The notes under the pieces were generated by a model that had not been told where the DNA came from, did not search any database, and saw nothing but the letters and a program-made list of their open reading frames with translations. A stretch of DNA of 20,133 nucleotides, taken from the IMG/VR virus record IMGVR_UViG_2778261637_000004. One strand, written 5' to 3'. Shown here piece after piece: positions 887 to 20,133 of the stretch (its first letter is position 1; each line of letters opens with the position of its first letter). Both the position numbers and the translations under genes were made by a program. This stretch comes from a virus (Duplodnaviria > Heunggongvirae > Uroviricota > Caudoviricetes).

Positions 887-1533
887 TTGTGAGTATCTCA
901 CGTTCTCACTGCGCTGGGCAAAAAAACATCGCAAAATCTGGAGCAGGCACGCAAAACAGAATTGAATGTTGCGGGGAGGAAAAATGCCGCTCTGTTTGAG
1001 TGGGCGGCATTTGTGAAGGCTGAAAAGGAAGAATTGGCGTTACGAGTTATTCTGTTGAATCTGTTTGTAGAGTATTGGCCTCAGTTCCGCATTGTAGCTG
1101 ATTTTTTTCTAATGCGTTTTTTGATTATGTACACCCTTATGTACACGTTTTTTTAAAGCGTTCAGCAATTACGCTGGTGGATGATCACGGATAACCTGAC
1201 ATCTACAGCCGCCTTAAAAAGCTGAACCCGACAAGCATTACTGCGTATCGGGTTCGTTCGCTCTTTCTACTCGTGGCAGATGAGTTTACGGTGTGATTTT
1301 ATCGGGCGAGGGTATTGTATCAGGCATCCCCTTTTCTATGCAGATTTGCATAGTTCCGAATGGTGGCGTTATGGAAGCCTCCCATATCAGCATCATGCCC
1401 ACCAGCGTGAAGTATTTTTTATTTCGCGGGTGTAAAAATTTGACGAGGCGGGCGGTCCCATAAGCAATGGGTTGTAGGGATTTCGATCCCCCCTCCTGAA
1501 TGCAATTTTTCGTATATATATATACAAAACAGT

Positions 1534-1688
1534 GCGGGTTATGCGGGTTACCGGGTTATCTTAGCGTGCTAACTATTTTTTATTCTTTAGTATCAATATG
1601 TTGTAAAATGCACTGTTCATTATTCAAGCATCGCATAACCCGCAAAACATCCCAAATAACCCGCAAACGCCCCAAAATAACCCGCAAA
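1534..1688. repeat. Iteron cluster A: three tandem GCGGGTTAY 9-mers, a ~75 bp AT-rich spacer, then three ATAACCCGCAAA copies at 20-22 bp spacing; putative origin or cis-replication region
   Basis: Tandem copies at 1534-1542, 1543-1551 and 1552-1559 (degenerate). AT-rich spacer 1561-1630. Inverted copies at 1635-1646, 1655-1666 and 1677-1688. No ORF covers the region. Confidence 0.6.
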
Positions 1689-2703: not shown

Positions 2704-5480
2704 CAGTTCCCCACCGCCTTTCCAAAATCCGGTGCTCTACGTGGCGCAATAGCACCCGGTTCCCACCAACTCGTTATGTCGAACTCCCGTTGCGCGCGGT
2801 CCCTTACTCGATCATTGTAACCAGGGTTTGCCATCTCCTGAAGTTGTTGCAATATCAGGTGATTGGTTATCGCTTTCGCATACCACAGGTTTGCGAATGG
2901 AGTGATCATGCGGGCTGTTTTCAGTGCATCGGCACCGAATGATGTTTCTTCACCCTGTAGAGCCTTCTGTGGGTTAGTAATCAGTAATTTTGTTAACTGC
3001 TCTGCAAAGCTCAACACAGGGCCACCCATAGTGGCACCGATGCTGGAGCCATATTGCGTATGGTCCTGGAAAATAAAATCACCGTAGATACCGAACGAAC
3101 CACCTTTCAGTAGAGCCTGAACCCATGTGGTTGGTTTTGTCATATCCAGCGGGTCATTACCATTTAACAAACTGTTCATCTGGATCGCAAACATACCAGC
3201 AAGAGTTGTTCCCCCGATATATGAGGCCAGAAATTTAATGGCCGGAACGGTGTCCAAATCCCGTGTTCTGTTAACAAGTTGCCGAAATCCAGCAAATGGG
3301 GTTGTTTTGAAGAGCATGAAGCTCTTCATTAACTCGCCAGCATCATCACGGGCATATGTATCAATACCCGTAGCGGTGGTCACAGCATTGGTCATCTCAC
3401 CGTGCGTAATTCCCAGCAATTTCTGGGCTGCTTCAGCGCGTGCATTACGAATCATGCGCGTGATGGTCTGCTCAGCCTCAGCGTCGAATGCTTCTTTCAT
3501 CCGTTTCAGGCGTTCTGGAGGGAGATCTCCAAGGGCTGCCAGTGCCTTTTCACTCCCGGCACGAATCCGGGCAATACGGTCTGCCATAATGTCGGCGATT
3601 ACGTTATCGGGCACAGCGTAAATCGCGTCTGGCGTCATCCCCATATGCCCGGCAGTAGTCATCGGCCTGAGTTCTGCCGCTGCCATGATGGCCCAGTCCT
3701 CATTGCTCCATCCCTTGTTAGCCAGAATGGTTTTATCGGTTCCTTTTATATCGTCCAGCGTCTTAAATTTTCTGGTCAGCTCGCCAATATTTTTGTACAT
3801 CAGGAGACCAAACGACGCTTTGTTTGCGCGGTCCATAGCGATCAGCCCGGACCACTTCAGTGTCTTCTCTGCGAACCAGCCAGTTATGCCGCGAGACAAG
3901 TCAAACCCGCCCATTTTCGAAACCACAGCAGCATGTGAATCCACCAGCAGACCGAGTTCAGCATTCGCCTTTTTGGCATCTCCACTAAACAGGTTTTTGA
4001 TAGTGTTAACGGAAAGCCGCATTCCACCACGGGTAAAGCCCAGCGCCTGCGCATTTGCCCGCATAATTGCCTGGTCGCTGGTTGCTGTCAGTACGCTGGT
4101 GCCAAGCATGGCGCTGGTCATCAGGTTACGCAGACCACCAACTGCTGAAGAGAACACACTCGATGAAGCGACACCATTTAGGCCAGCCATTGAGTTGAAC
4201 ATACGGGCAACTAATTTGGCCTCATCCTCCATTTCTTTTTTGCGTTTCCCGCCTGTTACTGCGCGCTTATAGATGCGATCCAGTACCAGGGAAAAGTTTC
4301 TTTCGGCGTCCGGACCAAAGGCTTTAACGACGCCCAAATCCCTGGATGATGATTGCAGGTGCGACATCATCACCCCCACCAGCGGCTGCTGAGTGTATCG
4401 CTCCATATAGGCGAAGTGTGACTGCGCATCCTTGAACGCCATCACCCTGTGCTGAGAACCACGGCTCTTTATTCCTCCGGCTCCCATAAATGTACCAGGC
4501 TCAATTTTGTTTGCCCCATCAGTGGCCTTCGTTTCAAAGATCGCTTCCAGTGCCTGACGGTACTCGACGTCATTCATAATGCTGCCGTCAGGATTAACGT
4601 AATTGCTGCGATCCTGCGTGTTGTAAGCGTCATCAACCCATTTCTGGCGGGCAAACTCAATCGGTGGCTGGCGACCTGAAAGACGTGCTGTAGCTTGCTC
4701 TGCCACTGGTAACGATGCCAGCCATTCTTCGCGCCCGGCATTGCGAATAAGGTCAGCATCATCCACATATGGCGTATGCCAGTCTTCTCGCAGGCCTATG
4801 TCAAAGCCGTTGTCGTTCATCTCATGACGAACACGGCCTGTTACATCCTTCCAAATCTGTGCAATTTTCTTCGCCAGGGGATTACCGGTATCTTCGCCAT
4901 AAATTTCTTTCAGGATCTGGAGTTGTGCAGACTTTGCCGCCTGCCTGTCGAATACACTCCGAAACCGCTGCTCTCCAAGCGCCCTGCTCTGCTCGAAGAA
5001 TTTGCGGACGTCATCACCTGCTTTTAGAAGTTCAGCACTGAGCTGACGGGACCAGTCCTGATATGCCCCAATTGCAAGCTCTTCAGCAGAAGTAACGGAG
5101 ATATCAGCTTTGTCTCTCGATCGTCGGCCAGCAAAAATAAACTGCTGCAAATTAACAGGTGTCTGCTGATCAGGCGGGATGTTAGCATCGAGAGTGTCAG
5201 TAATTTTACTGATGGCGATCGCATTCTGGGCAACACGCTGTCTTTTCTTGTACACATCATGAACCACACGCTGGCGTACCAGTTCTGCTGCATCCATGTA
5301 TGTTTGAGCATCAGGAATACCACTTTTGCCTTCTTTTGCATTCTTTCTGTGCACATGCTGCACAGCTTCTTTGATACGATCTTCAATATTTTTCAGCTCA
5401 TCAGCCTTTGGCTGGCGACCAAGTGTCTGCGCAATAGCTTCAACACATGCCTGTTTCATTATGGGTTCCTCAAGAAGCAC
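2703..5480 (-). CDS. Large hypothetical protein (~918-925 aa), Gly/Ala/Ser/Thr-rich with hydrophobic glycine-rich segments; cargo operon gene 3
   Basis: Long uninterrupted ORF. The track start is a GTG at 5480; the more likely start is the ATG at 5459 (MKQACVEAIAQ) preceded by GAGGAA. No Walker A or other recognisable catalytic motif. Segments such as GTSVLTATSDQAIMRANAQALGFTRGGM and GGTTLAGMFAIQMNSLLNG resemble phage structural or ejection-protein composition. Confidence 0.85.
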   Translation of the reverse strand: MLLEEPIMKQACVEAIAQTLGRQPKADELKNIEDRIKEAVQHVHRKNAKEGKSGIPDAQTYMDAAELVRQRVVHDVYKKRQRVAQNAIAISKITDTLDANIPPDQQTPVNLQQFIFAGRRSRDKADISVTSAEELAIGAYQDWSRQLSAELLKAGDDVRKFFEQSRALGEQRFRSVFDRQAAKSAQLQILKEIYGEDTGNPLAKKIAQIWKDVTGRVRHEMNDNGFDIGLREDWHTPYVDDADLIRNAGREEWLASLPVAEQATARLSGRQPPIEFARQKWVDDAYNTQDRSNYVNPDGSIMNDVEYRQALEAIFETKATDGANKIEPGTFMGAGGIKSRGSQHRVMAFKDAQSHFAYMERYTQQPLVGVMMSHLQSSSRDLGVVKAFGPDAERNFSLVLDRIYKRAVTGGKRKKEMEDEAKLVARMFNSMAGLNGVASSSVFSSAVGGLRNLMTSAMLGTSVLTATSDQAIMRANAQALGFTRGGMRLSVNTIKNLFSGDAKKANAELGLLVDSHAAVVSKMGGFDLSRGITGWFAEKTLKWSGLIAMDRANKASFGLLMYKNIGELTRKFKTLDDIKGTDKTILANKGWSNEDWAIMAAAELRPMTTAGHMGMTPDAIYAVPDNVIADIMADRIARIRAGSEKALAALGDLPPERLKRMKEAFDAEAEQTITRMIRNARAEAAQKLLGITHGEMTNAVTTATGIDTYARDDAGELMKSFMLFKTTPFAGFRQLVNRTRDLDTVPAIKFLASYIGGTTLAGMFAIQMNSLLNGNDPLDMTKPTTWVQALLKGGSFGIYGDFIFQDHTQYGSSIGATMGGPVLSFAEQLTKLLITNPQKALQGEETSFGADALKTARMITPFANLWYAKAITNHLILQQLQEMANPGYNDRVRDRAQREFDITSWWEPGAIAPRRAPDFGKAVGN

Positions 5481-7512: not shown

Positions 7513-10043
7513 TATTCAACCCTCACGACAATAGCTTTATTGGTTCTGGGATCTGTTGCCCAGCGTCCGCTACCATTTACAAGCCGATACCGGTTATTGC
7601 CGATATTAACTGGCGTGAAATTTGACACTGCATTTACGTTAAGTCCGGCATCTTTCAGTGCTTGTTTCGCAGATGTGGTATAGCGATCTTTGAAAGTAGA
7701 TTTATCCATGCCGAAAGGCATTACAACGTCGCCGCCATTAAAACCATTGTATATACCGCCAGTAGCATACTTCACGGCATCAGCTACAATGTCTGTATCA
7801 GGCATACTGGTTCTTACCGTAGATGCATCACCAGATTGATAAGCTATTCCTGCATAAGCGGCTTTGAAAAGGCTATAACTGATCTGGCGTAACTGCGGGT
7901 TACGGGCAAATGCATTACCTACCTGTTCGTCGAAAGCGTCTTTCATCTTATCTTCGCTCGGCAACTGTACCGGAGTTATGCCCGCATTCTTCATGGCCTT
8001 CGTCGGATTCAGTAGTTGGTCGCCGGAAAGAATAACCTTTGCAACGTCGTACTTGTTCATCGTCGGCTTATACCCGATGAACTGACTATATGGGATCGTC
8101 GGCTTGGTGTTGTCGTACTGGTTATCCGGCGTGCCCAGCAGCAGCGCAGAATAGGCTGTTGCCGCACTGTTCGGAGCAATTACAGATGCCACCTGCCGTA
8201 TTGCTGGCGCAGGCAGCTTCTCCCCCATGCTCTGCAACAGTTTAATTGTCTGGTCAACGTTCTGAGTGCCGCGCACCTGCTGTGCCAGCGCAGCCGCCTC
8301 TTCACTGTTGAGGATTGGGGCATTAATTCCCAACGCGCGTAAGCTTTCCTGCGACGAGAAACGGTTAGCCACCTCGGCAGTGATGTCGTCAGGGTTGTTG
8401 CTGGTGATCGGCTTATAGGCTCCGATTTCCACCGCTGCACTAAACGGATTATTCTGCCTCTGGGTTATTACCTTCGTGGCTGCCGCCGATACCCGGTCGA
8501 ATAACTCCGCACGAGACGCATACCCCTCCCCTGTTTCACCAGTATCCGGGCGCAATTGCTCAACATATGCGGTAATGCTGCTTGTCGGCATGTTGCGGAA
8601 AGAGCCTATATACTGTCCGGCGATCTGCAAATTTCTGAACTCGATATATCGCAGGTTTCCTTCTCTGACACCATAAGCTGCAATGAACTCATCCTCACCA
8701 GGTGGGTTAGGAAATTCAACGCCACGCATAAACGCAGCCGTTGCATCGCGAACCCTGCTATCGAGCATCGTTCTATATTCAGCCTGCTGCTGTCTGGCTA
8801 ATGCATCCGTCTGTCGCAACACGCTGGCCTGATCTGATTCACTTAAAGCATCGAACCAGGCTACACCGGTATAACGTTTATTTTTTGTCGGTAGCTGAGA
8901 AAGCCCCAGTGCGGCACTAACGCCAGCGGCCAATTGCTGATCACTGTACGGCTGACTGCCTTGCTCATGATGAATAATTGCTTTGCACAGAGATTTCAGT
9001 GTGTCAGGATTTGATGCGTCAAGCGGCTGGTCAGGAGTTACACCGAGCTGAGCACATACTGCCCGTATATAAGCATCAGTTTTATTATCATCACTGGCCG
9101 GTGCCCAGCGATTAATTATTTCGCTGATGGTGTCATAACCCTGACGCTGATACGACAGCAAATTGCGACCAAGCGCGCGAATACCGTGTTCAGGGGTTTC
9201 GAATTTGGCAAAGCGACCATCATCACCAGTCTGCCCAACCCACGGATTAGTTTTGCTGTATTCAAGATTGCCGGGGTTATTGTTGCGTATACCGCGGGTA
9301 CGATCGGAAGAGCCACTATCTGCTACAGCACGGCGAGATCCAGCAGCAGTATCGCTTAACTCTCCGTTTTGCTGTCTTACCTGAAGATAGTTTGCTCCAA
9401 TAGCATTTTGAGCAGTTGCTTTTGCTGTTGCTTCTTTAAACTCGATTTTCTTGGCCTGGATTTGCTCGTCGCTCCAGCCATGCGCAATACCGTAATCCTC
9501 AATTTGCTGGAAAGTTTGCGTATTAGCCAATATGTATGCTGCGTTGTTGCCATATAATGCTGAGGCATTTTTACCATTATTCAGCAGTGTCGCCTGAAAC
9601 TGGCCTTCTTCGTAGGCATTTATTTGCCCTATCTCGTACCTCCCGGCCTGCGTAGCGAACTGAATACGCTGCTGCTGCGCCTGCTGCATGAAAGCATTAC
9701 GAGCCTGTTCATCCGGCAGCGACATAGCCAGTTGTTCGACCTGAGCATCAAACTGCTGTGTATACTCATGGCCTTTTCCAATAGCATTTTTCCCTTTCAG
9801 ATTAAGCAATCCTGTTTCAGGATTATTCAGCAGATCACTGCCTGTCTGACTGAGTTTAAGGGATGCCTCCTGAACCAAGGCAATATTGGCGCGCTGTTTT
9901 GCCTGACCAAGAACATCAATTGCCTCTGTCCCTGCCCGAACAAAAGCATCACCAATACCTGGCTGAGAAAACGTCTGCAAGCCTGCTGACTGAACTCCAC
10001 GGCTCTCAACCTGACGTCCGGATACTGTTGGTACGACTGGCAT
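7512..10043 (-). CDS. Large hypothetical protein (843 aa), Gln/Ala-rich N-terminal region and a conserved-looking GIRNNNPGNLEYS...RWAP block; cargo operon gene 1
   Basis: Long ORF with ATG at 10043 and an AGGGGG Shine-Dalgarno upstream. The block at residues 251-315 (nt ~9099-9293) looks like a conserved domain core. GKNAIGKG is not a canonical Walker A. Confidence 0.85.
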   Translation of the reverse strand: MPVVPTVSGRQVESRGVQSAGLQTFSQPGIGDAFVRAGTEAIDVLGQAKQRANIALVQEASLKLSQTGSDLLNNPETGLLNLKGKNAIGKGHEYTQQFDAQVEQLAMSLPDEQARNAFMQQAQQQRIQFATQAGRYEIGQINAYEEGQFQATLLNNGKNASALYGNNAAYILANTQTFQQIEDYGIAHGWSDEQIQAKKIEFKEATAKATAQNAIGANYLQVRQQNGELSDTAAGSRRAVADSGSSDRTRGIRNNNPGNLEYSKTNPWVGQTGDDGRFAKFETPEHGIRALGRNLLSYQRQGYDTISEIINRWAPASDDNKTDAYIRAVCAQLGVTPDQPLDASNPDTLKSLCKAIIHHEQGSQPYSDQQLAAGVSAALGLSQLPTKNKRYTGVAWFDALSESDQASVLRQTDALARQQQAEYRTMLDSRVRDATAAFMRGVEFPNPPGEDEFIAAYGVREGNLRYIEFRNLQIAGQYIGSFRNMPTSSITAYVEQLRPDTGETGEGYASRAELFDRVSAAATKVITQRQNNPFSAAVEIGAYKPITSNNPDDITAEVANRFSSQESLRALGINAPILNSEEAAALAQQVRGTQNVDQTIKLLQSMGEKLPAPAIRQVASVIAPNSAATAYSALLLGTPDNQYDNTKPTIPYSQFIGYKPTMNKYDVAKVILSGDQLLNPTKAMKNAGITPVQLPSEDKMKDAFDEQVGNAFARNPQLRQISYSLFKAAYAGIAYQSGDASTVRTSMPDTDIVADAVKYATGGIYNGFNGGDVVMPFGMDKSTFKDRYTTSAKQALKDAGLNVNAVSNFTPVNIGNNRYRLVNGSGRWATDPRTNKAIVVRVE

Positions 10044-11643: not shown

Positions 11644-12069
11644 TTAAAACGGTATCCCGTCCCCGTACGGATCATCGTGCTGGCCTGTCTGTTGCTGTGC
11701 CCTGTTCAGTGCATCAGTAGCCTGCCCCTGCTGGCCTTTTTTGCCGCCCGGTCGCGCCGTTCGCGCACTGATTACGCTGTCTGCGATAACCTGCCATCCC
11801 TGCCTCGTTTCGCCGTTCTGGCCCGTCCACCGGCTCACCTGCATGTTACCGGCCACGCTCACCAGTTCGCCTTTGTGGTGTTTTGCCAGTGCGTCAGCCT
11901 GTCTGCCAAACGCCAGGACGGATAACCACATCGTCGCCGTTCCGTCATCTGCCTGATTGCATGGAAGAGGGACCGCCATACTCGCCATCGCCATTTGTGT
12001 GCCCTTGCTGGTGGTCTTTAACTGCGGGTCAGCCACCAGCCGCCCGTAAGCTGATATTTGCGCCGTCAT
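11644..12069 (-). CDS. ssb: Single-stranded DNA-binding protein (SSB family, mobile-element type)
   Basis: 141 aa; OB-fold-like N-terminus, a Gly/Gln-rich linker and a C-terminal acidic tip ending DDPYGDGIPF (canonical SSB ends DDDIPF). Confidence 0.8.
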   Translation of the reverse strand: MTAQISAYGRLVADPQLKTTSKGTQMAMASMAVPLPCNQADDGTATMWLSVLAFGRQADALAKHHKGELVSVAGNMQVSRWTGQNGETRQGWQVIADSVISARTARPGGKKGQQGQATDALNRAQQQTGQHDDPYGDGIPF

Positions 12070-12132
12070 GCTGTTTGTTCTCCGGTTTTAACGTGATAGT
12101 TACGCTTGTTTACACTCTTACAGTGAAATTTT

Positions 12133-12255
12133 GCGGGTTACAATCGCACATTTGCGGGTTATAACTGCTGTTTTGCGGGTTACGTGCGGGTTATTGATTT
12201 CCTTTTTAATCATGCAGTTAATTAACTTATGCACAGGATAACCCGCATAACCCGC
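12133..12255. repeat. Iteron cluster B: four GCGGGTTAY copies (21 bp spacing), a ~43 bp AT-rich spacer, then two tandem ATAACCCGC 9-mers; putative origin
   Basis: Copies at 12133-12141, 12154-12162, 12175-12183 and 12186-12194; inverted tandem copies at 12238-12246 and 12247-12255. Sits in the 210 bp gap between the primase stop and the ssb start. The arrangement is the reverse complement of cluster A. Confidence 0.6.
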
Positions 12256-12279
12256 AACTTTTTACCTCACACAGGGAAG

Positions 12280-14406
12280 TTAATCTTCTGCTTCAGGCTG
12301 GAACATCAGCACGTAAAAAATATGCTGCTTCCCGCCAATCCTGCCGAGCGCCTTTTTCTTGTAACGGCGGTCGCCTCCCGCTTCCAGCATTCCGGCAGCA
12401 CTCAACGCGCGGGCAAAGTGAGACGGATTAAATCCCTGTGCGATCTCCCCCTCAAACACATGCGGAAACGTGTAAAAACGGAACTCATCATCTTCATTTC
12501 TGATACTCCCCTTTCTGTATCCGGCAAGGTCTTTAATCGGTAAATCACGCTCATCGCTGTTTGGATAAGGAAGGTATCGACTGAACCCGAACGACGACAA
12601 AAACGCCTCAGCCTGTTCAACCATCTGTTTAAATTCCCTGTTGCCCGTGCCGAATTCCTTCACCCAGGCATTAAAGTTATGCTGAACTGCATCACGGCAC
12701 GCCTGAACATCCCAGCCTGTAACATGACCGGAAAGCACAAGCGCGGCCTCCAGTACGGCGAATCTTTCCCCCACGCGGTGAACCTGCTCGCCGTAGCTCT
12801 CCGGTATCAGGTTGCGCCACCGCTCGCGACATGCCCTTACCGCGTCCTTTGCCTCCTGCTGGTGGCCTGCCAGCCATTTAACCCACTCACGACCTGCCGC
12901 CCCGTGATTTTCTGTCCAGGCATCTTTTAACGCGTCTGCGTGCGCCTTTCCGGTGCTGTATTCGTGAAACTGCGAGGCCTTTTCCATCGGCACGTTAAGC
13001 AGACGGACAAGCTGCCCCGCTTTAATTTTTATCCCTTCCGTTTTGAGGAATGTTTCAACGTCCATTTCTCCGGTGCTGATTGCCACCGTGCGCCAGTGTT
13101 TTATCTCCCTGTTGCCGCCGTCCTTCGCCCCCTGTAATTTCCCGGAACCGTTAAACAGCGTATAGGCTGACGTGGACACCTCCCGCGCGTTTCCGGCCTG
13201 GCCTATTTCATCCAGGGGTAACAGCCCGTCATTATGTGCTTCGGCCTCGTTGGCGATACCTAACGCCGTTCCGTACCAGGTCAGCCGTTGCGCGTCCGGC
13301 TCTCCCCATAAACTTGATGCAATGTTCTGTGTGGTGGTTTTACCTGCTGATGATTGCTCAAAAAGATGAACCCCGAAGCCGTCAGCACCCACCAGCCCGA
13401 TTAATGGTGCGGATAGCGATACCGCCACACCCAGCATCATGGACGGATTACCACCAGCCAGCCGCGCCACGGTATCGCGCCAGCCCTCCGCTGTTCCCGC
13501 CACGGAATAGCCATTAACTGCGGCAGTTTTTCCGGTAAACAGGATGGGTTTCTCTGATTCACCAATGACCGAACCATCCGGCATGATGTACGCACCAAAA
13601 TGCCAGCCCGTTGTAGTGCTTAGCTGCCATTCCTCATGACTTCCGCTTAACTGCATCCAGTCAGCCAGGATGGCTCTGTATTTGCCGTTGGTCGTCACGT
13701 TAAGACCGTGGTCTTTCAGCAACCGCCAGCCGTCACGGTCACCAATGCCTCCGCACGGGACCGCCATTGTAATGACCTCATGGTTTGCTGGTTTTTTCCA
13801 GCGCATCACGCGGTAATGCTCTTTGCCGATTGTTCCTGTTCCCAGTAGTTCAAGCGGAGAACATAACCACGTCTCAGGCCGGATAATTTCGCCTGACTGC
13901 TTGTCCACTTTGGGCGTTACCCAGAAAACACCATCGACGCGACTTTCAACACGAGGCTTTAATTCGTCATCATAATTTCCGGTGAAATTTGTCTTTGCCG
14001 GAAGGTTGATCACCAGACTGTTACCGCGTTCCGCATCATCCTTCAGTCCAGCCATGCGCGGTGTCCAGTCCTCCGGCTGCTGGTCAACAAAGCTGCGGTA
14101 GCAACGCGCCTCCTTCACACCCGCCACTGCAAGCAGTGTCGCTATCTGTGTAAGGTGCTGCTCTGATATTTCACCAGCACGATAAACGCGCACGTAATAG
14201 CGCCCTTTGTCGATGATTTGCGTGTCTGCCAGACTCGCCAGTTGTTCCGGTCCAAGAATAACTGGATGTGTATCATCTGCCGCAATATGCTTTCCGGCCC
14301 ATTCGCTCCACTCTTTCGCATGTGCCCAGGCATCACTACCCGCAAAGATAATCACCTCCGTCATTTTGTCTTTCGGCTGGTGCTTTAAATTCGGTGCGCG
14401 TTTCAT
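12280..14406 (-). CDS. Replication initiator: primase/helicase-type protein with a P-loop NTPase domain
   Basis: 708 aa. Walker A-like LFEQSSAGKTTTQ and an acidic LLPLDEIG stretch (Walker B-like). ATGA start/stop overlap with the upstream 100-aa gene. Sits beside the iterons and ssb, as in P4-alpha-like and PICI replicons. Confidence 0.8.
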   Translation of the reverse strand: MKRAPNLKHQPKDKMTEVIIFAGSDAWAHAKEWSEWAGKHIAADDTHPVILGPEQLASLADTQIIDKGRYYVRVYRAGEISEQHLTQIATLLAVAGVKEARCYRSFVDQQPEDWTPRMAGLKDDAERGNSLVINLPAKTNFTGNYDDELKPRVESRVDGVFWVTPKVDKQSGEIIRPETWLCSPLELLGTGTIGKEHYRVMRWKKPANHEVITMAVPCGGIGDRDGWRLLKDHGLNVTTNGKYRAILADWMQLSGSHEEWQLSTTTGWHFGAYIMPDGSVIGESEKPILFTGKTAAVNGYSVAGTAEGWRDTVARLAGGNPSMMLGVAVSLSAPLIGLVGADGFGVHLFEQSSAGKTTTQNIASSLWGEPDAQRLTWYGTALGIANEAEAHNDGLLPLDEIGQAGNAREVSTSAYTLFNGSGKLQGAKDGGNREIKHWRTVAISTGEMDVETFLKTEGIKIKAGQLVRLLNVPMEKASQFHEYSTGKAHADALKDAWTENHGAAGREWVKWLAGHQQEAKDAVRACRERWRNLIPESYGEQVHRVGERFAVLEAALVLSGHVTGWDVQACRDAVQHNFNAWVKEFGTGNREFKQMVEQAEAFLSSFGFSRYLPYPNSDERDLPIKDLAGYRKGSIRNEDDEFRFYTFPHVFEGEIAQGFNPSHFARALSAAGMLEAGGDRRYKKKALGRIGGKQHIFYVLMFQPEAED

Positions 14407-14705
14407 TTCTTGCCCCTGAATGCGTTAATCATGTTCTTTATTACCTGAATATTTGCCCGTGCTTTCTCTTTACTGGTGGGCTTACTGCGTGGTGCTGCAC
14501 ATACCAGTGAAAAATCACGCCGGAACTGATGAACGGGCATCACACAGTCATAGTCGTACCCTGCGCGGCGGTATGTAATGTGCCGTTCATACACGGAATT
14601 AATAACCACGATGTCGCCATATTTATCCCGGAAAATATCCCCGATCCTGATTTTCGGGTGAGTCTGTCCGCTGGCATTTAAGCCAGTAAATTTAATCTTC
14701 TTCAT
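14403..14705 (-). CDS. Hypothetical protein (100 aa), translationally coupled to the primase gene
   Basis: ATGA overlap with the primase start; 2-nt gap from the upstream 85-aa gene. Confidence 0.6.
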   Translation of the reverse strand: MKKIKFTGLNASGQTHPKIRIGDIFRDKYGDIVVINSVYERHITYRRAGYDYDCVMPVHQFRRDFSLVCAAPRSKPTSKEKARANIQVIKNMINAFRGKK

Positions 14706-14707
14706 GT

Positions 14708-14965
14708 TTATTTCCCGGTGTGGGGTTCTTCTTTATATTTATGGGCTAACAAATCTGGTAATTGCCTGTATTTATCCTCGGCAATATATTCAGAATAATC
14801 GACAGCACTGTTCAGTATATCTAACGCCGTTTCATGCTCCAGATTCGAAACTATAAGGAACGTTGCTACTTTTAGCATATTCGCGATATGCAAAAGAGCA
14901 TCAATTTCATTTTTTGGCGCTTCGCTGAATTTTTGCTCCAGAAGAATAAATCGTTCATCACGCAT
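14708..14965 (-). CDS. Hypothetical protein (85 aa)
   Basis: ATG at 14965 preceded by AGGAGGA; acidic, helical-looking sequence. Confidence 0.6.
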   Translation of the reverse strand: MRDERFILLEQKFSEAPKNEIDALLHIANMLKVATFLIVSNLEHETALDILNSAVDYSEYIAEDKYRQLPDLLAHKYKEEPHTGK

Positions 14966-15161
14966 AGTGTTCCTCCTGACGGATGCGGGCAGTAAATACC
15001 ATCACGCAGCCAGCCGGGGATTGCTGACGGGCTTCCTGTTCGCTGGTGGCCACGATGTGAATCACGCGCGGTTGTGCCGTACTCAGGGCGATAAAACGCC
15101 AGATGTATTTATTCAGGTTGTGCGAGTCCCGCCCTTGCGGGTGTGTGGTATGATTTCTCAT
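14958..15161 (-). CDS. Hypothetical small protein (67 aa), first gene of the leftward replication operon
   Basis: This is the C-terminal 67 codons of the 415-aa track ORF, starting at an ATG (15161) with GAGGT upstream; it overlaps the next gene by 8 nt. The rest of the 415-aa ORF conflicts with a well-supported plus-strand gene. Confidence 0.45.
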   Translation of the reverse strand: MRNHTTHPQGRDSHNLNKYIWRFIALSTAQPRVIHIVATSEQEARQQSPAGCVMVFTARIRQEEHYA

Positions 15162-15257
15162 AGCTACCTCGATACTTCTGCTATCGTTGGTGGTTAGAAG
15201 CCCGGTTAGTGTTAGCGCACTGCCGGGTTTCGTCGTTTCTGCACCTTGCATCAACAA

Positions 15258-15336
15258 GGTGTAAGTAACTTTATTTATAGGTGGCTTACATGTCAATGCT
15301 TTTATGTAAGACTTTTTATGTGTATATTGTCTTACA
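15258..15336. promoter_or_regulatory. Divergent promoter/operator region with nested inverted repeats
   Basis: GTGTAAG (15258-15264) pairs with CTTACAC (15330-15336), and CTTACAT (15284-15290) with ATGTAAG (15303-15309). TATATT -10-like element at 15322-15327. Lies between the leftward replication operon and the rightward RHH-like gene. Confidence 0.45.
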
Positions 15337-15357
15337 CTTTCGTTAAGAGGATTACAG

Positions 15358-15663
15358 ATGGCTACAGGTTCAAAAAACGCAAAATCACAATCGCTGACAG
15401 CTCGGATCCCGCATGATGTTATTGAAGGCATGGAATCCGTAAAACTGGACGGCGAAAGCAACGCCGGATTCATAGTAACCGCCATGCGTGGTGAGATCGC
15501 CCGCCGCCAGGCAGAAGGAAGCGGAGAAAATCCCCTCGTGTCTTCACTGGATGCCTTAGTTAAGGTCGAACAAATCGGCATCAAGGCAGCGGAGGAAATC
15601 GGGCAACTCGTAGCCGTCGCTCGTGAAGAACTCCAGCGCCGGGAGGCCAAAGAGCAGGAATAG
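15358..15663 (+). CDS. Small DNA-binding protein, ribbon-helix-helix-like (MobC/CopG-like); candidate island regulator
   Basis: ATG preceded by AAGAGGA. SLTARIPHDVIEGMESVKLDGESNAGFIVTAMRGEIARR is consistent with an RHH N-terminus followed by a helical C-terminal region. Confidence 0.6.
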   Translation: MATGSKNAKSQSLTARIPHDVIEGMESVKLDGESNAGFIVTAMRGEIARRQAEGSGENPLVSSLDALVKVEQIGIKAAEEIGQLVAVAREELQRREAKEQE

Positions 15664-15720
15664 CCACTATCAGCGCCATAGTTTGAGGAACGCAGGCGCA
15701 TTGCTTTACAGGGCAGCACC

Positions 15721-15900
15721 ATGAGCGACACAGAATCAACAAAAACACCATCACCAACTCGTAAGAGACGACGCAAAAATATAGCGCATGAACATGAATC
15801 AGAAAGATTCGCACCTTGTTCGTTTGCTCTTGAGAAATTCCTTAAAGAGCACAGGAAAAAGCTCTCGTTGCAAACCCTGGAACGAACCAAATCTGACTGA
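15721..15900 (+). CDS. Small basic protein (59 aa), not in the ORF track
   Basis: Hand translation gives MSDTESTKTPSPTRKRRRKNIAHEHESERFAPCSFALEKFLKEHRKKLSLQTLERTKSD. Followed by a plus-strand terminator; the ribosome-binding site is weak. Confidence 0.35.
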   Translation: MSDTESTKTPSPTRKRRRKNIAHEHESERFAPCSFALEKFLKEHRKKLSLQTLERTKSD

Positions 15901-15967
15901 TCACATTGCCCACCAGCTGCAAATCTGGCATTGTTGGCGATGCGTTTGATTTCCTTTGTTCCCACTG

Positions 15968-15995
15968 GCGACCTCTCCCGGTCGCCTTTGTTTTG
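15968..15995 (+). terminator. Rho-independent terminator for the rightward small operon
   Basis: GGCGACC-TCTCCC-GGTCGCC hairpin followed by TTTGTTTT. Confidence 0.6.
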
Positions 15996-16044
15996 CCAGT
16001 TATCCAGCAACGGGGCGCTTTTTCTTTCTGTAACGTTCGGATCG

Positions 16045-16602
16045 TTACACATTGTTTTCACCCTCCAGAAAATCAGGCTGATATTTACGCCATAGCGCCC
16101 GCTCTTCTCGTTCCAGTGCATCTTTTGCCTCTTTGCATTGCTGTAACCTGTAACCGCGTTTGCTGGCTTCCTGTTGATAGGCAGCCTGGCGTTTACTGAA
16201 ATCATTCAGCATGGCAAACGGAACACCATAACCCCCCGTTTTGCGGATTGAAGGGATAACCTCGCGGAATACCCAGTTACTGAAACGGTGCGCAAATGTG
16301 CCTGGTGTGGAAGCTTTACGGCTGCGGGCGATCAGTTTGTAGAAACCTGATTCAGAGACAACATTCCAGCTTCTGGCACCACCACGCTTACCGGAATGCC
16401 CCTCGGTTAAAGCTAGGGTCATTACCTCGTCGTTATCCAGAACTGAAACGGCATCAGTAACATTGCTGATTTCCAGCGCAGCACACACATCAGCGCCAAC
16501 AAACCACGGCTCGCCGTTGATACTCACTATGCGCACCTGAATGTCATCGAATTTAATGACAGAGATTTCAGTGCGCCCGGCATAAAAGACAGGTTTACGC
16601 AT
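16045..16602 (-). CDS. Bro-N domain protein (phage anti-repressor family)
   Basis: 185 aa. IQVRIVSINGEPWFVGADVCAALEISNVTDAV is a typical Bro-N core. 8-nt overlap with the upstream gene. Confidence 0.8.
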   Translation of the reverse strand: MRKPVFYAGRTEISVIKFDDIQVRIVSINGEPWFVGADVCAALEISNVTDAVSVLDNDEVMTLALTEGHSGKRGGARSWNVVSESGFYKLIARSRKASTPGTFAHRFSNWVFREVIPSIRKTGGYGVPFAMLNDFSKRQAAYQQEASKRGYRLQQCKEAKDALEREERALWRKYQPDFLEGENNV

Positions 16603-17496: not shown

Positions 17497-17703
17497 TCAG
17501 GCTGATGTGTTTCGGCGTTCTTCCAGCCAGCGATTAATCTCTACCGCATCAAACGCGGTAACATTACTGGTAAGTTTTATAGGCCGTGGTAACGTGCCAT
17601 TTTTCACCCAGCGATCGATTGTTGGCATAGAGACTCCCAGCAGTTCTGGCAAACGGTATCGGCGAATGTAGCCAGTAGTAGGAATGGTAGATTGTTCTGT
17701 CAT
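17497..17703 (-). CDS. alpA: AlpA-family transcriptional regulator / excisionase-like protein
   Basis: 68 aa with a winged-HTH core (YIRRYRLPELLGVSMPTIDRWVKNGTLPRPIKL); the usual integrase partner in P4-type and CP4-57-type islands. Confidence 0.8.
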   Translation of the reverse strand: MTEQSTIPTTGYIRRYRLPELLGVSMPTIDRWVKNGTLPRPIKLTSNVTAFDAVEINRWLEERRNTSA

Positions 17704-18771: not shown

Positions 18772-18864
18772 ATGCCACCTTTAAGCATTTCACCTTAAAA
18801 AATGAATGAGTCCAGCGGTAAGGTTTTCCGCTCTTCACCCCGTCGGGCTAGGCTCAATCTGTCC

Positions 18865-20133
18865 CTATGATAGCTTATGCATTTTCCTGATTGGCGTCAC
18901 GTTGTATTCTTCATTGCGTTCTAGCGCTACCAGCAGATCAGCCCACTGTGCCAGCGCAGCTTTACGCTCATCAAAATACTGATGGCGGTTATAAATCCCC
19001 TCCACACCCTTAATGCGATGATTGAGGCATCGTTCCGCTACGACAGGATCAACACCCAATGCTGCTAAATGAGTACGTGCGGTACGCCGGAAGTCGTGAA
19101 TCGTGAAATTAGGCACATCCGGCATTTCGGCGCGAACCTTAGCCAGTGCTACGGGTAAAGTGCTTTCCTGAATATGTGGGATCATTCTGTTTTGCATCTT
19201 CCTGGCTGGAAGCACCCATGCGCTATTACATGAAAAGGTGTGTAGCTCTCTCAACCATTCAACGGCAGGAGAAGGTAGAGGTATATCAATAGGGTCTCCG
19301 TTTTTGCTGCGTTCTTCCGGCAAATGCCATACCGCACCATCTAAATCAAACTCTTCCCATCGTGCGGCGCATAACTCCATCTTACGAACGCATAGTGCCA
19401 GCAATAGCTTAAATGTCAGTTCGTTCTGGCGGCTGAATCCTTTGGCTTTACGCATTGCCTGAAAAAATTGGATTAATTCGTCACGGTTCAGCCAGCGATC
19501 ACGAGATAATTCTTTCCCACCAGCATCTGATACTTCGAAAGCTGAGCAGGGATTTATCTCCAGAGCGTGGCGTTTTATCCCATAGTCAAAGATACGGCGT
19601 GTCCAGCGTAATACATCTGTTGCTATCGTTGGTGCTCCTCGGTCAACGATACCTTTCAACATGTCGTCAATGTGGCGTGGCTTAACGTCCTCTACCTTCA
19701 TATGCCCAATGCAGGGGTTAATATCCTTATCAATTCTCCGGCGAAGGATATCGGGATGTTTCCATCTCGGAAGTATCTGTCGCTCGAAGTATTCGGCGGC
19801 CAGATCTGAAACGCGCATGGCGTTTTTCTCAGCCTCCATTTTTGCCAGTGCTTCAGCTTTTCGTTCCTGTTTTTCTGCTGCTACGTCATAGCCAAGAGCA
19901 ACTCTGGCTGACAGCTCTTTTGCTGTTTCTCTGGCTTTTGATAGTGACAGTTCGGAGTAAGAGCCGATAACCATAGCCCGCTGTTTTCCTGCGAGCTTAT
20001 ATCGGAATCGCCAGAACGGGACTGTGTAGTTTTTGGGGTAGCAAATATAAAGGCCGTTGCCGTCTGCCTTGCCATCAAATCTGTCTCCCGCCTTTATCCA
20101 TGCGCGGATCTGCATATCTGTGAGTTTTGGCAT
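18865..20133 (-). CDS. Tyrosine recombinase, P4-type integrase with an N-terminal arm-binding (DUF4102-like) domain
   Basis: 422 aa. The N-terminus (LTDMQIRAWIK...DGNGLYICY...WRFRY) matches the P4-integrase arm domain. The C-terminus has HDFRRTARTHLAALG and a GIYNRHQY tyrosine region. The start codon is the final three bases of the window. Confidence 0.9.
   Translation of the reverse strand: MPKLTDMQIRAWIKAGDRFDGKADGNGLYICYPKNYTVPFWRFRYKLAGKQRAMVIGSYSELSLSKARETAKELSARVALGYDVAAEKQERKAEALAKMEAEKNAMRVSDLAAEYFERQILPRWKHPDILRRRIDKDINPCIGHMKVEDVKPRHIDDMLKGIVDRGAPTIATDVLRWTRRIFDYGIKRHALEINPCSAFEVSDAGGKELSRDRWLNRDELIQFFQAMRKAKGFSRQNELTFKLLLALCVRKMELCAARWEEFDLDGAVWHLPEERSKNGDPIDIPLPSPAVEWLRELHTFSCNSAWVLPARKMQNRMIPHIQESTLPVALAKVRAEMPDVPNFTIHDFRRTARTHLAALGVDPVVAERCLNHRIKGVEGIYNRHQYFDERKAALAQWADLLVALERNEEYNVTPIRKMHKLS

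Follow-up and report, generated by a model that had tools for sequence, protein, structure and literature searches.

Comparison of the window (the whole stretch of 20,133 bp of DNA that was analysed) with ~90 related loci indicated that its two iteron clusters, B beside the replication gene (rep) and A towards the integrase-distal end, are module 1 and module 2 of a PICI-type satellite replication origin, parted by 10.5 kb of accessory genes. These comparisons strongly support a single bipartite replicon to which both clusters belong and which is served by the product of the gene beside B. The host element is an E. coli PICI-type phage satellite island. The parts of the two modules are as follows, with strands given for the window and the order of elements given in the sense of rep.

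1512-1525, minus strand: GTATATATATATAC box, adjoining the module 2 tandem arm and reading TGTATATAT in the rep sense
1534-1685, minus strand: origin module 2 (cluster A), in the order phased arm, A+T-rich core, tandem arm
1534-1559, plus strand: module 2 tandem arm, composed of GCGGGTTAT, GCGGGTTAC and a degenerate CCGGGTTAT (starts 1534, 1543 and 1551)
1560-1634: module 2 A+T-rich core, 75 bp, 69% A+T (composition scan)
1635-1685, minus strand: module 2 phased arm, three GCGGGTTAT iterons in 21-bp steps (starts 1635, 1656 and 1677)
12133-12255, minus strand: origin module 1 (cluster B), in the order tandem arm, A+T-rich core, phased arm
12133-12194, plus strand: module 1 phased arm, four iterons (starts 12133, 12154, 12175 and 12186)
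12195-12237: module 1 A+T-rich core, 43 bp, 70% A+T, the presumed melting site
12238-12246 and 12247-12255, minus strand: module 1 tandem arm, two abutting GCGGGTTAT iterons (exact search)

An exact search of the window for GCGGGTTAY returned 12 matches against 0.27 expected by chance, a number reached in none of 100 dinucleotide-preserving shuffles, and 11 of the 12 copies fall within clusters A and B. Cluster B starts 23 nt past the stop codon of the DUF927 gene (12280-12282) and occupies the 210-bp gap between this gene and ssb, which starts at 12069; the first-pass annotation, made from the letters alone, had likewise placed it in this gap. That annotation also described four copies at 21-bp spacing, of which the copies stand while the spacing needs correction, the steps being 21 bp, 21 bp and then 11 bp to the copy at 12186. 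The A+T-rich spacer of 43 bp and the two tandem copies that it had reported were recovered at the positions listed. The core of module 1 ranks in the top 4% of 43-nt windows for A+T and that of module 2 in the top 2% of equally long windows, the whole window being 52% A+T. The third tandem copy of cluster A (1551) carries one mismatch, and the conserved unit of the phased arms extends to ~12 nt (TTTGCGGGTTAY). Given the 9-bp steps of the tandem arms and the 11- and 21-bp steps of the phased arms, all iteron copies of a module would lie on one side of the helix.

Cluster A carries the elements of B in the opposite order and orientation, as had been noticed earlier, and the minus strand of B aligns with the plus strand of A. 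In the output of a repeat finder the pair accounts for the two longest inverted repeats of the window, 1636-1688 with 12130-12182 (53 nt, 77% identity) and 1526-1550 with 12239-12263 (25 nt, 88%). The coordinates also agree with the earlier statement of a ~10.5 kb separation, with ssb, the ProQ-like gene and the entire cargo operon enclosed between the clusters. Cluster A is found 10.6 kb downstream of the rep stop and ~390 bp inside the integrase-distal island end. The twelfth copy of the motif, a single exact GCGGGTTAC at 7895-7903 inside the gene for the 843-aa cargo protein, is also present in the near-identical island L001; isolated and without module architecture, it is probably due to chance.

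The main features of the island outside the two modules are the following.

1124-1147: att repeat ATTATGTACACCCTTATGTACACG, island end; a second copy lies beside the integrase end in the near-identical island L002 (21990-22013)
2389-10043, minus strand: cargo operon, encoding proteins of 843, 674, 925 and 104 aa
11110-11607, minus strand: ProQ/FinO protein
11644-12069, minus strand: ssb (Pfam SSB, E 2.4e-16)
12280-14406, minus strand: rep, encoding the 708-aa DUF927 protein (Pfam DUF927, E 1.7e-46)
14403-14705, minus strand: DUF4222 protein
17497-17703, minus strand: AlpA/HTH_17 regulator
18793-18858, minus strand: int-alpA RNA (Rfam RF02996, 42.5 bits), between the integrase gene and the next ORF
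18865-20133, minus strand: tyrosine integrase

All long ORFs of the window, among them those for AntA and Bro-N proteins, lie on the minus strand, and the gene order of the island is int, alpA, Icd-like, DUF4222, DUF927, ssb, ProQ, PerC and cargo. The window matches E. coli chromosomes, its ORF at 1-837 being the core gene dinD, and the island lies between dinD and yicC. The att repeat has the form ATTATGTACACC(C/T)(T/C)TATGTACACG, with more TGTACA copies close by; its positions at 1124-1147 and beside int in L002 give an island length of ~19.4 kb. Gram-negative PICIs were recognized by int, alpA, pri/rep and ori in the same direction, a size of 10-20 kb and a specific att site, and the island shows one gene direction, ~19.4 kb between att repeats, synteny with EcCICFT073 and the int-alpA RNA. 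Clusters A and B are unchanged in two near-identical islands, L001, which has another integrase and sits at tRNA-Gly with a 19-bp att repeat, and L002, which has different cargo. Elsewhere this backbone is combined with other integrases, at tRNA-Gly, at tRNA-Pro and at clpS/cspD and, as helper-embedded PICIs, within terL genes of prophages. A 415-aa ORF at 14958-16205 (minus strand) overlaps the Bro-N gene and is probably not real, since the annotation of related genomes has just a short Icd-like gene where this ORF starts.

The block that parts the two modules begins with ssb and holds cargo genes whose products had no match in Pfam, NCBIfam or PADLOC. At the cargo position, relatives with parted modules carry tail genes (Dit-like, gpV spike with an Apex motif, a 1136-aa tape measure and an SLT-domain protein), and the capsid-forming PICIs of E. 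coli carry capsid and packaging genes. The 843-aa cargo protein has relatives of 29-57% identity in several islands, and its counterpart in L002 is annotated as an SLT-domain protein. Based on these tail genes and this counterpart, the cargo of the window may consist of tail-related structural genes and not of a defence system.

The gene beside cluster B had been labelled a primase in the first-pass annotation, a label that we replaced, as no primase domain was detectable in its product by Pfam, profile or NCBIfam searches. Pfam reported DUF927 only and NCBIfam a weak Cch1 match, while a profile built from 20 homologues of the protein matched the PDB entries 8tch ('Pathogenicity island protein', E 1.3e-15) and 5dgk (SCCmec Cch helicase, E 3.8e-5). 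From these matches the DUF927 protein is presumed to be a helicase-initiator of the SaPI-Rep/Cch type and the protein that binds the iterons. Homology to P4 alpha was considered and ruled out, with a BLASTP E value of 0.12 and a different Pfam content. Members of the family are self-loading Rep helicases, in which a C-terminal winged helix binds the iterons, the A+T-rich centre of the origin is melted and hexamers are loaded (PMC6092414, PMC9371898).

The C-terminal part of the DUF927 protein covaries with the iteron. Among 73 proteins, compared at equal helicase-core identity, the C-terminal ~100 residues are 68-71% identical in pairs that share an iteron and 41-59% identical in pairs with different iterons, which makes this variable region the likely specificity domain. 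Its most variable stretch is a basic helix-hairpin segment, reading ...AGML-x6-RYKKKAL-x4-GGKQH... in GGGTTA-type proteins and ...GRGYQRKSPRIDGRQ... in TGAACCAAC-type proteins, and such a segment would suit a winged helix. AlphaFold models of the last 149 residues (pLDDT 47.8) were too poor for a fold to be assigned, the full protein reached a pLDDT of 51.5 with residues 1-130 alone confident, and a profile of the C-terminal domain had no match among PDB sequences at E <= 10. The N-terminal ~146 residues are swapped among relatives, most tblastn matches beginning at residue 147; an alpha/beta, Rossmann- or Toprim-like fold is predicted for this part (AlphaFold pLDDT 80-90), and one plasmid homologue is annotated 'TOPRIM and DUF927'.

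Another E. coli island at dinD/yicC (L085) has a DUF927 gene (19672-21810) that equals the gene of the window except for its last ~106 codons, and its origin (19352-19639) has contiguous modules with a different iteron, TGAGGCAAC. By this comparison the specificity domain and the origin of L085 seem to have been exchanged together in nature. Such a swap of the C-terminal domain with module 1 would be easy, since module 1 abuts the 3' end of rep.

A survey of one genome per species gave 80 loci across Enterobacterales with relatives of the DUF927 protein (44-79% identical). In ~70 of the 80 an iteron array begins 20-30 bp past the rep stop. The iteron sequence varies by lineage, with at least 12 specificities, and the spacing is kept almost unchanged. 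The commonest iteron is TGAACCAAC; other lineages use, among others, GTGGGTTA, ACGGGTTA, CGTGGTTCA, GGGACAACA, GAGACAACA, TGGTACAAC, GTCGGGTA, AGTGTGTCA and GAACCGAC. Module 1 has the spacing >9>(9>)~52-64<11<21<(21<), that is, 2-3 tandem iterons, an A+T-rich core of 52-64 bp measured start to start and 3-4 inverted iterons; the geometry of cluster B, >9>54<11<21<21<, is the module 1 geometry of ~70 related loci. Module 2 is its mirror, with the spacing >21>21>~52-94<9<(9<) formed by three iterons at 21-bp steps, a core and 2-3 tandem inverted iterons. The compact arrays had also been considered as direct repeats of one module, a description that was rejected as the arm spacing shows mirror images. 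A search blind to the iteron sequence over ~1.7 Mb of fetched loci found the two-module architecture only at these origin sites.

In ~48 loci the layout is compact: module 2 begins 24-67 bp after module 1, and ssb, where present, starts only after module 2. Module 1 alone was found in 19 loci, nine of which end early at contig ends; for the other ten, downstream sequence extends ~10 kb, short of the separation of the modules in the window, and their module 2 could be further away, as in the window, or absent. No clear iterons were seen in 8 loci. Extra origin copies lie upstream of rep in L023 (at -5777, -1195 and -14 relative to the rep stop) and in L081 (at -10972, 100% identical to module 1 over 147 nt), and these may be tandem islands or assembly duplications.

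The compact layout bears directly on a second suggestion of the first-pass annotation, that the inverted pair marks a segment which behaves as one unit in amplification or resolution; the reading considered here takes the segment as running from ssb to the cargo and also includes its inversion or excision. Although the clusters do form an inverted pair around the accessory block, the modules abut in ~48 relatives with nothing between them, and the bracketing is therefore not the conserved property. Moreover, the arms are only 77% identical over 53 nt, no extra recombinase is encoded with the pair, and a single orientation, with the pieces joined on one strand and no inverted version, was found in all 19 of the best E. 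coli matches (those covering at least 80% of the window). We thus regard a delimited segment as extremely improbable and dropped the suggestion.

The GTATATATATATAC box beside module 2 is kept at this place in distant relatives. In the window it points outward, across att to dinD, and on an excised circle it would point to int; it may be an extended -10 or a part of the origin. Around both clusters, scans for promoters and terminators found nothing convincing on the relevant strand, with one weak terminator-like hairpin at 1826-1811, and over the whole window Rfam reported the int-alpA RNA only, with no match at either cluster, and no tRNA was found. It could be argued that the iteron arms are mainly transcriptional operators, through which Rep bound at B or A controls ssb or the late genes and a promoter at the TGTATATAT box. 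Cluster B does lie directly upstream of ssb, no terminator-like site separates rep from ssb, and in compact relatives a TATATA box follows module 2, ~20-30 nt before the ribosome-binding site of the next ORF. Against this, no convincing sigma-70 site was detected on the relevant strand, the architecture fits experimentally defined PICI/SaPI origins, and an operator role would add to origin function without replacing it, so that operators as the main function of the arms seem to us quite improbable.

In the second layout, to which the window belongs, the origin is split. Module 1 stays beside rep and is followed by ssb at +170 to +250, while module 2 is found 0.6-10.6 kb downstream, in at least 11 distinct islands. 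The distances of module 2 from the rep stop are listed here.

L067: 0.6 kb
L003: 2.3 kb
L027: 4.8 kb
L039: 5.9 kb
L025: 6.2 kb
L022: 7.2 kb
L095: 7.6 kb
L084: 7.9 kb
L094: 8.0 kb
L035: 8.8 kb
L056: 9.0 kb
L090: 9.8 kb
The window, L001 and L002: 10.4-10.6 kb

Without exception in the split loci, module 2 has the inverse orientation of module 1 and the cognate iteron of its lineage, across four specificities (TGCGGGTTA, CTTGTCCC, GTTGGTTCA and GGTCGGTTT). In the islands with a located att, 0.4-3 kb separate module 2 from the integrase-distal end. Both layouts occur in the CTTGTCCC lineage, compact in L091 and L013 and split in L090 and L003. Compact counterparts of the window are an O157:H7 island at roxA/phoQ of the capsid-forming PICI type (L088) and an island of SCU-172 (L089), which share the Rep lineage and the iteron TGCGGGTTA of the window and hold both modules within one 370-bp intergenic region. 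In the alignment of the compact TGCGGGTTA origin with the window, the first ~190 nt match cluster B and the last ~190 nt match cluster A, including sequence outside the iterons such as TTAGCACGCTAAG and the TGTATATATAT box. From this colinear alignment with a contiguous origin, each of the two clusters is homologous to one half of a single origin, and the ssb-to-cargo block of the window occupies exactly the gap between the modules.

The split loci also speak to whether cluster A could be a functionless leftover, for example of an ancestral origin that lost its other half or of a second island once integrated in tandem. Duplicated or tandem origin copies exist, in L023 and L081, and module 2 was not found in the ten loci with ~10 kb of downstream sequence. 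However, the distal module is cognate in all split islands, across four specificities, despite swaps of the C-terminal domain and iterons between lineages, and this argues for selection that maintains binding of the one protein to module 2. The arm spacings and the core of module 2 are intact, and module 2 is a distinct conserved type, not a copy of module 1, that never comes with a second rep gene. Integration at no fewer than five sites (dinD/yicC, tRNA-Gly, tRNA-Pro, clpS/cspD and within terL genes of prophages) further shows split islands to be mobile, now or in the recent past. A leftover is in our judgement very improbable.

The published PICI/SaPI origin lies immediately 3' of rep; on either side of an A+T-rich region it has an iteron set, the two being oppositely oriented, and these are read by a winged helix within the C-terminal domain of Rep (PMC6092414, PMC9371898). 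As judged from its position and layout, cluster B is a member of this class, represented by SaPIbov1, SaPI1 and EcCICFT073. It lies directly 3' of rep, whereas cluster A is 10.6 kb away in the window, its compact counterpart being within 370 bp of the stop. Both clusters have opposed iterons around an A+T-rich core (2 + 4 iterons in B, 3 + 3 in A), and the presumed initiator likewise belongs to the Rep/Cch helicase family, while its C-terminal part, which covaries with the iteron, would set the specificity. The published origins are single iteron/AT/iteron units, in contrast to the two mirror-image modules described here, the second of which lies in the window 10.6 kb off at the far end of the accessory block. 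EcCICFT073, a Gram-negative PICI that has been studied by experiment, has a backbone syntenic with that of the window (int, alpA, Icd-like, DUF4222, pri-rep, ori, ssb, PerC and late genes); its Pri-Rep protein and its iteron, CTGTCTACC, are different. The capsid-forming PICIs (O157:H7 at roxA/phoQ, EcCIEDL933 type) share with the window the DUF927 Rep lineage, the iteron TGCGGGTTA and homologous modules; they differ in having contiguous modules in a 370-bp intergenic region and capsid and packaging genes, in place of which the window has uncharacterised cargo.

The first-pass annotation had proposed a bipartite ori/crr replicon. Its bipartite part is upheld by the contiguous same-iteron origins and the cognate distal module, and in related islands both clusters are conserved, not one only; the P4 name, by contrast, can be kept as an analogy only, each cluster of the window being a full origin module of the PICI type with an A+T-rich core. 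P4 resembles the window in having two cis regions several kb apart with one common iteron, one of them just past the replication gene and, in P4, near attP. In the GenBank annotation of P4, crr (4291-4590) lies beside the alpha stop (4636) and ori spans 9086-9809, with shared type-1 iterons, and the crr unit, composed of two tandem iterons, a spacer and inverted iterons, resembles one module of the window. P4 differs in the iteron sequence, in that crr is a direct 120-bp duplication and not a mirror pair, and in that its distant site is upstream of the alpha operon while that of the window is downstream. Its initiator alpha (Toprim primase and D5-type helicase) has no detectable similarity to the DUF927 protein, and since the initiators are unrelated, likeness to P4 does not amount to membership.

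Initiator-binding repeats at two places, with room for looping, are also known from R6K (gamma with alpha/beta), P1 (incC/incA) and F (incB/incC). The initiators of these plasmids belong to the RepA/pi family, which is loaded with DnaA and DnaB and is unrelated to the DUF927 protein, and their control arrays are without an A+T-rich core of their own. Cluster A, when compared with copy-control arrays of the P1 incA / F incC type, which lack a melting region, has an A+T-rich core and full module geometry.

By analogy with the biochemistry of SaPI Rep, the DUF927 helicase-initiator would, after induction, bind the iterons through its C-terminal domain, melt the A+T-rich core and load itself as hexamers, and the excised circle would then be copied by the host replisome. 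With two initiation sites, the ~19.4-kb circle would have them ~10.5 kb apart along one arc and 8.9 kb along the other, and the gap between the modules would be a permissive point for the late or accessory block. We lean slightly towards the reading that both modules are sites at which Rep would load. The splits always fall between the modules and never within one, module 2 retains an A+T-rich core of its own, and split islands occur at no fewer than five integration sites, and for these reasons autonomous modules are favoured. Counting against two loading sites, the cores of module 2 are less rich in A+T, with a mean of 67% against 79% for module 1 (74 loci) over a background of 51%. As the modules are not exact mirrors, they could differ in role.

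It is possible, though we do not expect it, that B is the sole initiation site and that the same protein binds A as an auxiliary cis element, either a looping enhancer or a handcuffing site for copy control. Looping or handcuffing by an initiator is established in P4 (crr-ori), R6K (gamma iterons-alpha/beta), P1 incA and F incC. The same logic can be read from the P4 record, in which crr iterons lie 46 nt past the alpha stop and the ori block 4.5 kb away. The modules differ systematically in the copy number of their arms, and the cores of module 1 are the richer in A+T. Furthermore, rep-adjacent origins suffice in SaPIs and in the plasmid test of the cloned rep-ori fragment of EcCICFT073 (PMC6092414, PMC9371898), and since these work with rep-adjacent sequence only, module 2 may be dispensable or otherwise used. 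On the other hand, A has convergent arms and an A+T-rich core of conserved length, which a pure binding or handcuffing site would not need, and for a satellite whose replication comes as a burst upon induction, negative copy control would be of little obvious use; two Rep-loading modules stay our preferred reading.

A stronger form of the two-module reading is an obligate mirror origin in PICIs of the DUF927 type, bridged by Rep-mediated looping, with the gap as the preferred landing place for late and accessory genes. This form appears unlikely to us. If it were true, origin splitting would be a recurrent route to the uptake of capsid, tail or defence cargo, the cargo would be enclosed in a loop closed by Rep or flanked by two firing origins, and it could over-replicate in situ when Rep is expressed before excision.

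In the running text of the PICI papers that were searched we found no second, split or two-module mirror origin, while their figures may draw a compact double structure without remark; in the preprint on capsid-forming PICIs no origin is mapped. The new elements are a stereotyped two-module mirror-image origin, natural variants with the modules 0.6-10.6 kb apart and genes between them, and matched pairs of compact and split origins that share an iteron within E. coli. As a set, the compact and split islands provide a ready-made separation-of-function series for asking whether one module is enough, whether both fire and whether the initiator bridges them, which bears on how self-loading Rep helicases use their iteron arms. 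For annotation, a cluster of repeats found at the distal end of such an island should be counted as part of the replicon and not as something unrelated to it. Variable late and cargo genes sit between the modules, and such a block can lie inside an origin.

Among the compact loci are two circular Klebsiella 'plasmids' of 16-19 kb that carry an integrase and a DUF927 replicon. One of them (L092, NZ_CP069874.1, 15,995 bp) is clearly an excised capsid-forming PICI deposited as a plasmid, with int, AlpA, capsid, portal and terminase genes, and the other (L093, CP031370.2, 19,229 bp) looks like a related integrase-bearing island.
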